Shown here: one piece after another, positions 7,763 through 61,536 of the stretch
Numbering within the stretch: position 1 is the first letter of the stretch
How the letters are laid out: each line of letters starts with the position of its first letter
Assembly (NCBI GenBank): GCA_964457855.1
Contig: CAYWEO010000001.1
Coordinates: 81,747-145,746 of the forward strand
Length of the DNA stretch: 64,000 nucleotides
DNA from: an uncultured Opitutales bacterium
Lineage (GTDB): Bacteria; Verrucomicrobiota; Verrucomicrobiia; Opitutales; CAYWEO01
Direction: 5' to 3'
Notes under the pieces: model-generated
The model's input: the letters and a program-made list of their open reading frames with translations, nothing else
The model's database searches: none
Told to the model about the DNA's origin: nothing
Made by a program: the position numbers and the translations under genes

Positions 7763-10132
7763 GTGCGAAAAGTCAATTATACCGTTGAAGCGATTGAATT
7801 TTGGCTGAAGCAGTTAGCCACTGACTGGGAGCCTTTGCTGAAGCCGGAATGGATTTTGCGTGGTCGGTCCGCGTACCGCCAAAATCTTGTGAGCACGTTG
7901 GAATTGCACGTGGGGTATGCGATTGTCCAGTCGGCTTCGAAGGAGTCCACCGTGATTGAGTGGAACAAAAATGTCCTTGAGCTGCAAACATCTTCCGAGG
8001 ATCGCGAGGCTGGAATGACCCTCGGTGTTGCGGGAATTTATGAAATCGAGGCCATCGTTGCCGAGGTAGCTTCTCCGTTTCCATTTGAGGGAGCTATTGC
8101 GGAGCCGAAGCGCGAAATCGTGCCTATAAAGCCGCAATCGCTGCCCGTAAAGAAGAATTTGGTGCTGGAATTTTTCCTAAAACCGCCGAAATTTGGGTTT
8201 CGCGTCTTTTGGAACGAGGCGAATATTACGGCATCGCTGCAAGACGTTCTGAGGCAGCGTTCTCATTTTCAAGTGATTGATCGTGAACAAATCGTTCGGC
8301 TCATGTATCTCGCTAAGCAGCAATGGTTTGCGTTGAAGGATAATGCCTTTGTTTTGGAAAATTTGGCGGCAATTCCGGACTTTTTGAACCGCGTTGTGCC
8401 CAAATGGAAAAAGTACTTCGTTATCAAGATTTCAGACGACATTTTGCCGCTGAAGCAGGGTGTACGGGAGTTGTCGATGACGATGCGTGCGTTTCTAGAA
8501 AAAGACGGAAGTCTTTCCCTAAAAGCAACTTTTGACGATGGCGTTGAGGTTCCCGAGGAGTGGTTACGGCATGCGAATAAGACGCAATTGATGGAGGGAG
8601 GACGTCTTATTGCCTTGCGTCCCAAGAATTTAGAGTCGTTTAAGCGTTTCCGCGAGGTGTTGAAAAATGGGCATGGGAAGCCGTATTTGCTGTTTTCATT
8701 GGTCAATGCCGAAAATCTCGTGCTCGATGAACCTCTCGCGCAATGGAAAGAGGCGTTGTTAAAGACTCCACAAGAGCTTCCAGGGCAAACGTGTTTACGT
8801 CCGTATCAACGTGATGGGGTTGCCTGGATGCGGCATTTATTGAAGCAAGGCTGTAGCCCTTTGCTTGCTGACGAGATGGGGCTTGGGAAAACGCTTCAGG
8901 TGCTTGCGCTCCTTGATCTTGAGACAGAAACAGAGCAGGAGCTTCCCGATTTGGTCGTTTGTCCCGCGAGCGTTGTGTCGGTTTGGGAGGCAGAAATCCG
9001 GCGGTTTTTCCCGAATCGGCGTGTGCAGAAATTCTCTCAAGCGATTGACCAAACCTCTTTATGGATCGCGAGTTACAGTCAGTTACGGTACCACAGAGAG
9101 ATTCTAAAGACGCAGAAATTCCGGTATGCGATCTTGGATGAGGCGCAAATGATGAAAAATCCCCTGTCAAAGACTGCGCAGGCGTGTTTCGCGATTGACG
9201 CTCAGAATCGTTTGGCCCTCACCGGAACGCCCATTGAGAACAAGGATTTGGATTTTTGGTCCATTATGCACTTTTTGATGCCAGGGTTGCTCGGTTCGCG
9301 GTCGCAATTCCAGGAAATCGTCAAGACCCTCCCTCTATCCGCCATTCGCGCGCAACTGGCCCCCTTCTTCCTGCGGCGCACAAAGGCCGCCGTTGCAAAG
9401 GAATTGCCTCCAAAGATCGAAATGGAGCTGCCTTGCCCCCTCCTCGAAGAGCAGGCCAATCTCTACCACTACTGGAGTGAACGGGCGTTCGCGGATTTCA
9501 AAGAAAAAGGTCTTTCATCTCACGAGCGTTTCCACTTTCTCGCCCTCCTGATGAAATTGCGCCTCATTTGCTGCGACCCCGACCTCCTCAGGCCACAACT
9601 CTCCCACGAGCCCAAAAGCGGAAAAATCGTCGTTCTACTCGAAAAATTGGCCGCCTGTTTCGCGAATCAAAGCAAGGTCGTGATTTTCAGCCAATTTGTT
9701 AAACTGCTTAAAAACATCGAATTTTGGATCAAAAAGCAGTGGCCCGACCGCCCAATCCTCCTCCTAACGGGCGAAAGTCGCCAACGCGGCCGCCTCGTCG
9801 AACAGTTTCAGTCGACAGAACAGGCTATCATGCTCGTTAGCCTCCGCGCCGGCGGAACCGGCATCACTCTCCACTCCGCCGATACCGTTTTCATCGTCGA
9901 CCCCTGGTGGAATCCCGCCGTTGAGGACCAGGCTATCGACCGCGTCCACAGAATCGGCCAAAGCAACCCCGTTTCTGTCTACCGCCTCATCGCCTCCCAA
10001 ACCGTCGAAGAAGCTATCCAATCCCTCAAATCCAAGAAAAAAGCCCTCTTCCACTGCCTCATCTCCGGCGACTCATCCGTCAATTTCGGCGATAAGTTGC
10101 AAGAACTTTTAAGTTGGGTCGGGAAGAGGTGA
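7763..10132 (+). CDS. SNF2-family DNA/RNA helicase
   Basis: DEMGLGKTLQ (motif I), LDEAQMMKN (motif II), LVSLRAGGTGITL and QAIDRVHRIGQ (C-terminal helicase motifs). GTG start as in the track. Confidence 0.85.
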   Translation: MRKVNYTVEAIEFWLKQLATDWEPLLKPEWILRGRSAYRQNLVSTLELHVGYAIVQSASKESTVIEWNKNVLELQTSSEDREAGMTLGVAGIYEIEAIVAEVASPFPFEGAIAEPKREIVPIKPQSLPVKKNLVLEFFLKPPKFGFRVFWNEANITASLQDVLRQRSHFQVIDREQIVRLMYLAKQQWFALKDNAFVLENLAAIPDFLNRVVPKWKKYFVIKISDDILPLKQGVRELSMTMRAFLEKDGSLSLKATFDDGVEVPEEWLRHANKTQLMEGGRLIALRPKNLESFKRFREVLKNGHGKPYLLFSLVNAENLVLDEPLAQWKEALLKTPQELPGQTCLRPYQRDGVAWMRHLLKQGCSPLLADEMGLGKTLQVLALLDLETETEQELPDLVVCPASVVSVWEAEIRRFFPNRRVQKFSQAIDQTSLWIASYSQLRYHREILKTQKFRYAILDEAQMMKNPLSKTAQACFAIDAQNRLALTGTPIENKDLDFWSIMHFLMPGLLGSRSQFQEIVKTLPLSAIRAQLAPFFLRRTKAAVAKELPPKIEMELPCPLLEEQANLYHYWSERAFADFKEKGLSSHERFHFLALLMKLRLICCDPDLLRPQLSHEPKSGKIVVLLEKLAACFANQSKVVIFSQFVKLLKNIEFWIKKQWPDRPILLLTGESRQRGRLVEQFQSTEQAIMLVSLRAGGTGITLHSADTVFIVDPWWNPAVEDQAIDRVHRIGQSNPVSVYRLIASQTVEEAIQSLKSKKKALFHCLISGDSSVNFGDKLQELLSWVGKR

Positions 10133-10138
10133 ATAGAG

Positions 10139-10309
10139 CCGGGAAAACCATTTTTTACAAAAATAGGTTTTCCCGGACCCTTTCCAAAAAAATCTTTGTT
10201 CGGAAGGCATTTTAGTTCGGCCTGTAAGGCCGAACTAAAATGCCTTCCGATATCGCTTTTCTTTGGAGGGTTCGGGAACCTTTCTGTTCTTGGAACAGAA
10301 AGGTTCCCG
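10139..10309 (-). repeat. F1 triple-hairpin mosaic repeat, full copy (C-B-A on top strand)
   Basis: C 10139-10176. B 10201-10249 (apical stem AGTTCGGCC/GGCCGAACT). A 10273-10309. C starts 6 nt after the helicase stop. Confidence 0.9.
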
Positions 10310-10368
10310 AAAGAAAAGTTTCCGAATGCCATTGACAGCTTTGACAGAAACGGGTCATATAGATAGTC

Positions 10369-59863: not shown

Positions 59864-59946
59864 ACGACTTTGACTTTTCTTGAAAGACGGGAGATAAGTG
59901 AGGTTACACACAAATTCCCTATCATCCATCAAGGTAATCAAGGTCA

Positions 59947-61359
59947 ATGGTTCACGAACACGGACAACGATTAGAGCACGCACACAGGCAGGTCCATGTC
60001 CTCGCGCCGCAGCTGATGCTGTCCCTGAAGATTCTGCAAGCCCCAGCGGCAGAGCTGCAAGAGATTGTATTGCAAGAACTTCAGGTCAATCCCGTACTCG
60101 AGGAAGTTGCGCAAGAGGAAACAAATCTCACGTCACCAGAGGATTCAGACGTTGGTAACGAAGAGCTTACGGATCCGGATAGGGATCTTTTAGAGTATTT
60201 GGAGGGCGGCACTTTCGCAAACGCACAGAGGGAACACCGCAATCGAGAGGCGGACGAGCGCAGGCAGCATTTTTGGGACTCAATCCCCAGTGAAGTCACT
60301 CTAACGGAACATCTCATGCGTCAGGCGCGGACCGGCGAATTGACTCCCGAGGAGCTGGAAATTTTTGAGTACGTTGTGGGGAATTTGGACGATAACGGCT
60401 TCCTGTCGATGCTTTTAGAGGACATCGCTTCGGCAAAAAACGCGTCGGTAGCGGCCGTCGAAAAGGTTGTCCGTGCGCTGCAAAACATGGATCCGCCGGG
60501 CCTTGGCTGCAAGGACGTTCGCGAAAGCCTCCTCTGCCAGCTCGAAGTTTTGGGCAAAGAAGATTCCTTAGAGGCACAAATGCTTCGCGAACACTACGAC
60601 CTCCTTCTAAAGCGAAAAATTCCCGTTCTAGCAAAGATTTACGGCGTGACAACCGACGCTATTCAGGCCGCCATCAACGCCATCGGGACATTGTATTTTG
60701 CCCCGGGAAGGCGGTTCGTCCATCAACATGAGCAGTCAATCATCCCCGACGTCACTGTCGTAAAGGAAGCCGGCGTTTGGAGCATCATTTTAAACAAGGA
60801 ATCCCTCCCGCGCCTCGGCATCAGTTCCCTCTACAAACGCTTGTTAGGCAACGCTCAACTTGCCACAACCGAGCGCGCCTACATCAAGGGGAAAATCCAC
60901 TCTGGCCGCCTCTTCATTCACGCCATCGATCAAAGGCAACACCTCCTCCAACGCATGACCGAGAAACTCCTCGAATTCCAACGAGATTTTTTCGAGTCCG
61001 GAATCTCCCACCTAAAACCCCTCAAAATGCAAGAAATGGCCCACGCCCTCAACGTTCATGAGACCACCATCAGCCGCGCCGTTTCCAACAAGTACCTCGC
61101 GACCCCCCACGGAATCCTTCCGTTCCGCTCCCTCTTCACCAGCGGCATTCCCAACAACGACGGCGATGTCATCTCCAGCACCACCATCAAGGAATCCCTA
61201 CGCAAACTCATTGCCTCCGAACCCCCCTCCTCCCCCCTCTCAGATCAACAACTCTCCCGCCTCCTCACCAAAAACAACACCCCCATCGCCCGCCGTACCG
61301 TCTCCAAATACCGCGAAGAGTTGGGCATCGCGTCGGCAACGCTGAGACGTGAATATTGA
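59947..61359 (+). CDS. rpoN: RNA polymerase sigma-54 factor
   Basis: N-terminal Gln/Leu-rich region I (LAPQLMLSLKILQAPAAELQ). C-terminal HTH and RpoN box (ARRTVSKYRE). Confidence 0.9.
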   Translation: MVHEHGQRLEHAHRQVHVLAPQLMLSLKILQAPAAELQEIVLQELQVNPVLEEVAQEETNLTSPEDSDVGNEELTDPDRDLLEYLEGGTFANAQREHRNREADERRQHFWDSIPSEVTLTEHLMRQARTGELTPEELEIFEYVVGNLDDNGFLSMLLEDIASAKNASVAAVEKVVRALQNMDPPGLGCKDVRESLLCQLEVLGKEDSLEAQMLREHYDLLLKRKIPVLAKIYGVTTDAIQAAINAIGTLYFAPGRRFVHQHEQSIIPDVTVVKEAGVWSIILNKESLPRLGISSLYKRLLGNAQLATTERAYIKGKIHSGRLFIHAIDQRQHLLQRMTEKLLEFQRDFFESGISHLKPLKMQEMAHALNVHETTISRAVSNKYLATPHGILPFRSLFTSGIPNNDGDVISSTTIKESLRKLIASEPPSSPLSDQQLSRLLTKNNTPIARRTVSKYREELGIASATLRREY

Positions 61360-61363
61360 TTTT

Positions 61364-61536
61364 CCGGAGGGGGTGTTTTTTGCAAAAAGCACCCCCTCCG
61401 GGCCTCCCCCTTAAAAACTCTTAATTCGAAAGGCATTTTCATTTGGCCTTACAGGCCAAATGAAAGTGCCTTTCGATATGCTTTTCTTTTGAAGGTTCGG
61501 AAACTTCTTCTTTTCTCTGGAAAAGAAAAGTTTCCG
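61364..61536 (-). repeat. F1 triple-hairpin mosaic repeat, full copy (C-B-A)
   Basis: C 61364-61401. B 61427-61475 (apical stem CATTTGGCC/GGCCAAATG). A 61498-61536. C starts 4 nt after the rpoN stop. Confidence 0.9.

Follow-up and report, generated by a model that had tools for sequence, protein, structure and literature searches.

The 64-kb stretch of DNA analysed here, hereafter the window, belongs to contig CAYWEO010000001.1 of an uncultured Opitutales bacterium and has a G+C content of 47.5%. Its genes encode an NTP/ADP translocase, a type III secretion chaperone of the SycD/LcrH type, sigma-54, an SNF2 helicase, ProS, RecA, LpdA, RNase HII and YebC, next to other housekeeping functions. 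Taken by itself, this gene content suggests an environmental, chlamydia-like intracellular bacterium. Between these genes lies a repeat of 170-200 nt, F1, of which a nhmmer profile finds 13 copies and one relic. A direct-repeat search and a degenerate pattern agree on the 13 copies, and the 22-nt degenerate pattern matches 12 copies against 0 expected. F1 makes up 2,066 of the 7,323 nt of intergenic DNA in the window (28%), i.e., a single family fills more than a quarter of it, forms the whole spacer at some operon junctions and breaks short-read assemblies. F1 is probably a family of small non-coding repeats, new and lineage-specific, that are mosaic palindromes of the same kind as repetitive extragenic palindromes (REPs) and the bacterial interspersed mosaic elements (BIMEs) built from them, BOX and Correia elements, kept where its insertion is harmless. 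An earlier interpretation made from the letters alone (the sequence-only reading) had placed the family correctly and had proposed that it is polar relative to genes, running from the stop codon through its modules C, B and A.

The anatomy of F1 is best followed in copy 61364 (copies are named here by position), which serves as the reference:

61360..61557, + strand: full reference copy 61364, filling the whole gap from the rpoN stop TGA (61357-61359) to the TAG of a convergent tetratricopeptide-repeat gene (CTA on the + strand at 61558-61560)
61360-61363, + strand: TTTT
61363-61402, + strand: hairpin C (stem from 61363/4)
61403-61425, + strand: linker1
61426-61476, + strand: hairpin B
61477-61494, + strand: linker2
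61495-61539, + strand: hairpin A
61540-61557, + strand: CT-rich tail

Full copies measure 190-205 nt and keep this order. A short T run leads into hairpin C, which has a foot (CCGG), a variable but compensated middle and a constant top, TTTTTTGCAAAAA. Linker1 is ACCTCCCCCTTAAAAACTCT-like, hairpin B consists of arms TTCGGAAGGCATTTT with a variable palindromic tip and reaches 20-24 bp overall, linker2 (GCTTTTCTTTTGAAGG) is the most conserved part of the element, and hairpin A has the form TTCGGAAAC...GTTTCCGAA. The stems of both B and A stand on the foot TTCGGAA, and in most copies a CT-rich tail of about 15-25 nt follows A. The predicted folds are very stable, with a minimum free energy of -98.2 kcal/mol for copy 61364 (z = -12.6) and -85.1 kcal/mol for copy 55078 (z = -10.2). 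In some copies only, linker1 is predicted to pair with linker2 and thereby lengthen B, and the covariation is not convincing.

All three hairpins are conserved. In an alignment of ten full copies, 95.8% of the cells are paired, compared with 34-65% in slid controls, and both sides have changed at 18 of 45 pairs, a result that none of 500 shuffles equals. Nearly all changes lead from one Watson-Crick pair to another (51 double changes vs few one-sided ones). The strand test for RNA-level selection, which sets G-U against A-C, yields 39 vs 48, i.e., no strand bias. Watson-Crick changes without a G-U bias fit palindromes that are kept at the DNA level, or else a very strict hairpin requirement. 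The alignments also show reassortment: the two variants of C (C1/C2) combine with the two B tips (T1/T2), and the B tips with the two variants of A (A1/A2), in all four ways each, and the family is therefore a recombining mosaic. Outside the stems the element is markedly asymmetric. On the strand that reads from C to B to A, the unpaired parts of ten copies contain C and G in a ratio of 158:23 (about 7:1) and are 72% pyrimidine, so that GGAGG-like purine runs fall on the opposite strand.

To place the copies, the small genes rpmJ, rpmE2 and rpmG were added to the gene set and overlapping open reading frames (ORFs) were resolved by their Pfam matches; this confirmed tsaC/sua5 on the - strand (54039-55049). 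Seven of the 13 copies lie between co-directional genes, four (including 61364) between convergent and two between divergent genes; F2 in the following lines is a second repeat family of the window, described further below.

10133..10325, + strand: full copy 10139, co-directional, C-first behind the gene of the SNF2 helicase (stop TGA 10130-10132; the C stem begins at 10139); half of the right arm of A occurs an additional time at 10311-10325; rpmJ start 10369
23990..24189, - strand: full copy 24010, co-directional, C-first after proS, C end 24186, with the extended C stem overlapping the AG of the proS TAG stop (24190-24192); ABC ATPase gene start 23957
31918..32117, - strand: full copy 31937, co-directional, C-first after the SycD/LcrH-like chaperone gene (TAA 32118-32120), C end 32112; leuS start 31877
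48239..48433, + strand: full copy 48246, co-directional, C-first after rnhB (TAG end 48238), C stem from 48246; hairpin A ends at 48412, 21 nt ahead of the ATG (48434) of a major facilitator superfamily transporter gene
55050..55253, - strand: full copy 55078, co-directional, C-first after lpdA, C end 55249, an exact fill from the lpdA TGA (55254-55256) to the tsaC/sua5 ATG (55047-55049), into which the CT-rich tail runs
5684..5823, - strand: copy 5684 with truncated A, co-directional, A-first behind yebC (stop 5548) and F2 (5553-5666); C end 50 nt from the next gene start (5872)
25758..25949, + strand: full copy 25762, between co-directional genes and opposite to them in sense (A-first), its tail abutting the TAG (25950-25952) of an 833-aa ORF on the - strand; C end 59-63 nt from the proS start (25698)
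15760..15951, + strand: copy 15766, convergent context, its C degenerate; behind the rpmG stop (15594) comes F2 (15603-15715), and on the A side come an F2 end fragment (15949-15969) and the stop of the gene 15971-16624 (- strand)
18599..18790, + strand: full copy 18603, convergent context; an F2 copy (18459-18570) separates C from the NTT translocase stop (18454), and the A tail abuts the TAG (18791-18793) of a kpsF-like gene (- strand)
53819..53910, + strand: fragment 53830 (hairpin B, linker2 and one half of the left arm of A), in the convergent gap of recA (stop 53700) and tsaC (stop 54039), adjoining the F2 copy at 53937-54049
12598..12785, - strand: full copy 12617, in a divergent region between outward promoter-like sites at 12575-12548 (- strand) and 12832-12860 (+ strand)
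45634..45770, + strand: partial copy 45637 (B and A, without C), in a divergent region between a leucine-rich repeat (LRR) gene start (45571) and the efp ATG (45785), hairpin A ending 22 nt ahead of the latter
43404..43477, + strand: relic (C and linker1 only; nhmmer E = 4.4e-7), near an LRR gene stop (43493) with an F2-end-like fragment interposed; absent from the list of the sequence-only reading

The copies lie conspicuously close to stop codons. At least six of the 13 are within 7 nt of one (p = 1.1e-4, given 51 stops and 5,257 nt of non-F1 intergenic DNA). The six junctions quoted in the sequence-only reading, after the helicase gene, rnhB, rpoN, proS, lpdA and the chaperone gene, are all exact, and C begins to pair 3-7 nt past the stop. 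In seven of seven co-directional intervals the repeat block has the stop as its nearer neighbour and the next start as its farther one (p = 0.016), and four of five convergent intervals contain F1 compared with nine of 45 others (Fisher p = 0.013). Both ends of the element can be flush, since copy 55078 fills a stop-to-start gap and copy 61364 a stop-to-stop gap; moreover, the A-side tail meets an opposite-strand TAG with 0 nt between them in copies 18603, 25762 and 61364. The regularity is that F1 is flush with gene ends at whichever of its own ends faces them, not that C follows stops. On the start side 21-63 nt are left over beside F1, which is enough for a ribosome site or promoter. Co-directional spacers without a repeat are short, many of them 3-76 nt.

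ProS ends in the family-wide ...AKAY, which is kept in its homologues, and the profile match of RpoN ends 2 residues before the stop. Both end at their ancestral C-termini, and F1 therefore lies outside intact ORFs; truncation or extension by the element is rejected for these two proteins.

The sequence-only reading had described a tight, oriented junction, and it is the tight part that stands. The seven informative co-directional copies divide into five C-first and two A-first (binomial p = 0.45), the stop-facing ends into six C and three A (p = 0.51), and genes read into F1 on the C side in nine cases and on the A side in seven. A polarity of stop, C, B and A is thus not established. Copies 15766, 18603 and 53830, which had been counted as three more of the same polarity, lie like 61364 between convergent genes, where polarity is undefined because one end must face each stop, and they carry no orientation information. 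The interposition of F2 after the translocase gene and after rpmG had been correctly recognized, as had the exceptions: copies 5684 (behind F2) and 25762, both A-first, and 12617 and 45637 in divergent regions. F1 is split 9:5 over the two DNA strands at a uniformly positive GC skew in the window, and a link to the replication strand is not significant. On present evidence, the gene-relative orientation of F1 is not constrained.

A selected polarity would be expected if F1 were a domesticated, orientation-dependent RNA punctuation module of operons or gene ends. C right after the stop would then shield the 3' end of the upstream mRNA and delay the terminating ribosome. The linkers and tail would offer Rho a loading (rut-like) surface or serve as a leader that binds S1, B would be a double-strand RNase site, and A with its CU tail would be the 5' end or leader of the downstream message. 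We consider this possible but unlikely. The 5:2 split, the 3-7 nt between stop and C in six copies, the pyrimidine-rich unpaired strand and a distance of only 0-22 nt between the A end or tail and the following ATG (copies 55078, 48246 and 45637) all agree with it, and in E. coli, REPs closer than 16 nt to a stop can stall terminating ribosomes and lower translation (Liang et al. 2015, as summarised in PMC12306157). However, the orientation is not significant, two intact or near-intact copies are A-first, two lie in divergent promoter regions, and the A and C sides are entered by genes with similar frequency. Since the hairpins are symmetric, most RNA effects would work either way round. Furthermore, typical rut sites do not have so strong a secondary structure, the stems show no G-U strand bias, and the strand asymmetry belongs to the common consensus and hence counts as one observation rather than ten. 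This built-in asymmetry nevertheless leaves room for a polar RNA role.

Two further points against such a module also leave simple intrinsic termination, one form of the 3'-UTR (untranslated region) role in the sequence-only reading, without support. The hairpins have no adjoining U-tract after them, and a scan of the window for terminator-like sites found no enrichment (30 vs 27.8 expected and 21 vs 25.0 expected from shuffles). F1 as an intrinsic terminator is rejected: only 3 hairpins pass marginally, and the T run precedes C instead of following it. A role as carrier of sigma-70-type promoters is likewise rejected, with no promoter-like site inside any copy.

A GC-rich hairpin, GGCCGTTGGGCGGCC, at 53707-53721 with a T run on the - strand lies 7 nt past the recA stop and is the only canonical terminator-like site in the convergent gap between recA and tsaC. 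It probably ends the lpdA-tsaC transcript after this has crossed F2 and the F1 fragment. A strong hairpin at 12412-12444 (AAAAAAACGGCGGAG...CTCCGCCGTTTTTTT), which resembles a bidirectional terminator, is located between the promoter-like site at 12575-12548 (- strand) beside copy 12617 and the start of a Trp/Tyr-permease-family gene (12337), and may be a leader or attenuator.

The stop codons that touch F1 are skewed to TAG. Five of nine are TAG (18791, 24190, 25950, 48236-48238 and 61558) and one is TAA, whereas the other 42 genes use TAG seven times and TAA 24 times (p about 0.024 each, uncorrected). The three stops on the A-tail side are all TAG followed by GG(G), and four copies have an A2-type tail that closes with CCCTA(G); in one of them, copy 12617 (CCCTAG at 12598-12603), no ORF ends there. 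A possible 4-nt TAGG...CCTA is present at the ends of some copies only. The TAG skew, the CCCTA(G) tails and the ends at 0-7 nt hint at stops borne by the element or at a target preference, inseparable here from trimming of the spacer.

These features would follow directly if the insertion machinery targeted gene ends, placing F1 and perhaps F2 next to or into stop-proximal sequence, so that the flush junctions would be primary and not selected. Insertion might occur 3' of a short target (TTGAT/TRR), as in single-strand transposition of the IS200/IS605 type, or into hairpins past stops. Elements derived from IS200/IS605 insertion sequences (ISs) have subterminal hairpins at both ends and neither terminal inverted repeats (TIRs) nor target-site duplications (TSDs); they insert 3' of a fixed target of 4-5 nt, with a strand bias that follows replication. 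The hairpins towards both ends of F1, with no clear TIR or TSD, would fit this picture. All ten stop-facing ends at 0-7 nt, the TAG enrichment and the tails speak for such targeting, as do a left junction common to two copies (TTGAT followed by TTTCCGG) and the position of F2 inside copy-specific outer stems, as if it had been inserted into pre-existing hairpins just past stops. We nonetheless find this explanation doubtful and quite unlikely. TTGAT precedes two F1 copies only, the left flanks differ among copies and no common target can be defined. Two copies in divergent regions are far from any stop. A strict single-strand mechanism would bias the strands more strongly than 9:5 at a uniform GC skew, the window contains no Y1/HUH or other transposase, and, because the F1 boundaries are fuzzy, the 0-nt distances are partly definitional.

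A bolder reading, in which F1 is a polar, domesticated, lineage-specific gene-end cassette that couples termination to 3'-end formation, loads Rho or binds S1 through its linkers and is cut in B, or alternatively has spread through stop-proximal recognition with a TAG of its own, appears to us very unlikely. Were it true, a hairpin 0-7 nt past the stop would couple translation termination to the formation of the mRNA 3' end, and cutting of the long B duplex would separate the upstream from the downstream message.

F2 bears on the cause of the flush junctions. It is about 105-115 nt long and resembles miniature inverted-repeat transposable elements (MITEs), with TIRs CGATTTTGAGCG/CGCTCAAAATCG, and its sequence is unrelated to that of F1. 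It occurs at:

5553-5666, + strand: F2 copy
15603-15715, + strand: F2 copy
18459-18570, + strand: F2 copy
15238-15371, - strand: F2 copy
53937-54049, - strand: F2 copy
10742-10860: F2 variant
15055-15173: F2 variant
10883-11062: F2 fragment
15949-15969: F2 fragment
~43476-43511: F2 fragment

The outer closing stem of F2 differs per copy (ACAGGG/CCCTGT, GGGCTCC/GGAGCCC, CTGCTTC/GAAGCAG, CCGTGG/CCACGG). F2 begins 7-12 nt past the stops of yebC, rpmG, the translocase gene and eno, and its ends hold the stop codons of rpmE2 (TAG 10760-10762) and tsaC (TAA 54039-54041), the latter compensated on the other arm. Since an unrelated repeat also hugs stops, this placement is general for the repeats of this genome, which favours a general cause.

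We therefore favour the retention of F1 at harmless sites. The copies would have spread, or been exchanged, between intergenic sites, and a copy would survive only directly past a stop, in front of the promoter or start that follows, in a convergent interval or between divergent promoters. If the genome is compact with a deletion bias, useless spacer between stop and element would be lost, which would leave F1 flush with the stop at either end; the ends might even donate stop codons. For the tight junctions, the sequence-only reading had offered a choice between a 3'-UTR function and an insertion mechanism that reads gene ends, and tolerance combined with spacer trimming is a third cause that fits at least as well. 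Partial F1 copies and copies nested with F2 occur, and public short-read assemblies of the source organism stop within F1 and F2 copies, an effect that a repeat of high copy number should have.

If transcribed, F1 must shape mRNA ends, stability and possibly translation termination of the housekeeping genes proS, rpoN, lpdA and rnhB. Its hairpins, as part of a 3'-UTR or intercistronic RNA, would be expected to block 3' exonucleases, and the 24-bp duplex of B would make a target of the RNase III type. The C hairpin 3-7 nt past the stop would fall inside the footprint of the terminating ribosome, which would have to unwind it. In the A-first orientation the tail would put 15-20 nt ahead of the first hairpin, and this one effect on the ribosome could therefore depend on orientation. 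The C-rich, G-poor linkers could bind Rho or S1. We regard the exonuclease block, the RNase III target and the ribosome effect as putative by-products or secondary uses and not as the reason for the layout.

Several observations weigh against retention at harmless sites. A search of the ~50 window proteins for transposase-like domains found no transposase, REP-associated tyrosine transposase (RAYT) or cognate IS, and inspection of the F1 junctions, with their fuzzy boundaries, found no consistent TIR or TSD. The nearest ProS relative is 68% identical and offers no empty site for comparison, so the mobility of F1 is something we infer. The 0-7 nt at all stop-facing ends are tighter than simple tolerance predicts, and are compatible with it only if ancestral spacers were almost nil or trimming is efficient. 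The skew towards TAG (5/9 vs 7/42) has to be added, as does the strong strand asymmetry, which a purely selfish palindrome does not need. Finally, 5:2 is also compatible with a real orientation bias of 70-75%.

The known systems close to F1 include the REPs and BIMEs of E. coli, Pseudomonas, Stenotrophomonas and others, which are high-copy extragenic palindromes in mosaic units, located mostly between co-directional or convergent genes and near the upstream stop (PMC3733652). The distance of REPs to the 3' ends of ORFs is below 20 bp; they are near the upstream ORF and at a variable distance from the downstream one, and GTAG REPs often supply a TAG stop (PMC3733652). F1 shares the mosaic palindromes and the placement near gene ends, with 14 intergenic copies (relic included) in 64 kb that carry three compensated palindromic modules and with the distribution over co-directional, convergent and divergent intervals (7, 4 and 2) given above. 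However, the alignments show no REP tag (GTAG/CGTC; PMC3733652) conserved at the F1 stem feet. F1 stems are longer (18-24 vs about 10-15 bp), it occurs in a different phylum, it has three different palindromes in fixed order with C-rich linkers and a CT-rich tail, and no RAYT was seen with it in the 64 kb searched.

BOX of Streptococcus pneumoniae (boxA-boxB-boxC) is likewise modular and three-part, about 100-200 nt long and tightly folded, with modules missing or variable; it is also enriched between convergent genes and is transcribed as operon extensions (PMC3049150). In contrast to F1, in which each module is a hairpin of its own, BOX folds via terminal inverted repeats. By sequence F1 falls outside BOX, which is confined to mitis-group streptococci: its signature has no true match in 185,579 species-representative genomes, and its host is chlamydia-like in gene content. 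Correia elements and other MITEs are short, non-coding, structured, abundant and intergenic like F1, and Correia elements can undergo co-transcription and cleavage by RNase III, according to work cited in PMC3049150. F1 shows no demonstrable long TIR, no duplication of TA or another target and no known parent IS, though it may still be a MITE; F2 is more like a classical MITE with TIRs. SPRITE and terminator-like repeats share with F1 a long stem by the 3' ends of coding sequences and a strong enrichment between convergent genes, but a U-rich tract does not adjoin the F1 hairpins. Tolerance of insertions directly past stops, as favoured here for F1, has been reported for REP, BOX, RUP and SPRITE repeats (PMC3733652; PMC3049150). 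Rfam 15 gives no match at the gathering threshold over the window, and for copy 61364 only sub-threshold noise of the miRNA/snoRNA hairpin type. As F1 has neither the tag of REP proper nor the sequence of BOX, it is best filed as a new lineage-specific mosaic palindromic intergenic repeat.

Beyond the window, the F1 signature has no true match in 185,579 species-representative genomes (5 chance hits) and none in plasmids or phages; a viral scan gave two hits, presumed to be chance and uninspected. Queries with proteins from the window edges and with RecA had no result either. A six-frame F1 peptide query of 1,048 aa, aimed at spurious ORFs on other copies, returned nothing. A metagenome scan gave 19 hits, of which one (contig L014) is a true F1 copy, 96% identical over B to A and located beside an LRR protein gene. 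An identical ProS is found in NCBI data and in two Logan read sets, the next homologue being the one at 68% identity. The Logan contigs with this ProS (L006/L007; 1.6 kb, equal to window positions 24157-25787) end inside the flanking F1 copies. JGI metagenome contigs from the same organism (L027/L028, equal to window positions 17403-18628; 99.9-100% identity) only repeat the window. The source organism is present in JGI samples 3300044990 and 3300045131, and L014 comes from a third metagenome. In the literature searched, we found no description of REP-like repeats in Chlamydia-related bacteria, which are not known for them. A repeat model of F1 is useful for annotation, assembly and strain typing, while its gene-relative polarity becomes interesting only if a whole-genome census confirms it.

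Several other features of the window were recorded. The 833-aa ORF whose stop abuts copy 25762 (25950-28451, - strand) has no Pfam match, and its last ~17 codons contain a perfect palindrome at 25960-26000 with a 19-bp stem (TCGACAATGACGAATGATC GCA GATCATTCGTCATTGTCGA). After the chaperone gene (32118-32810), six tandem genes without a Pfam match occupy 32863-38771 on the - strand. Four of them share a conserved 37-nt start region (ATTCTCTTAAAAAA..CCCATGGCAAGCCTGAAG) and two are 46% identical; the six may encode type III secretion substrates. Genes for an RNase HIII-like protein (46373-47482) and RNase HII (47501-48238) stand in tandem, and a DUF4097 gene contains a 111-nt tandem duplication at 52071-52291.

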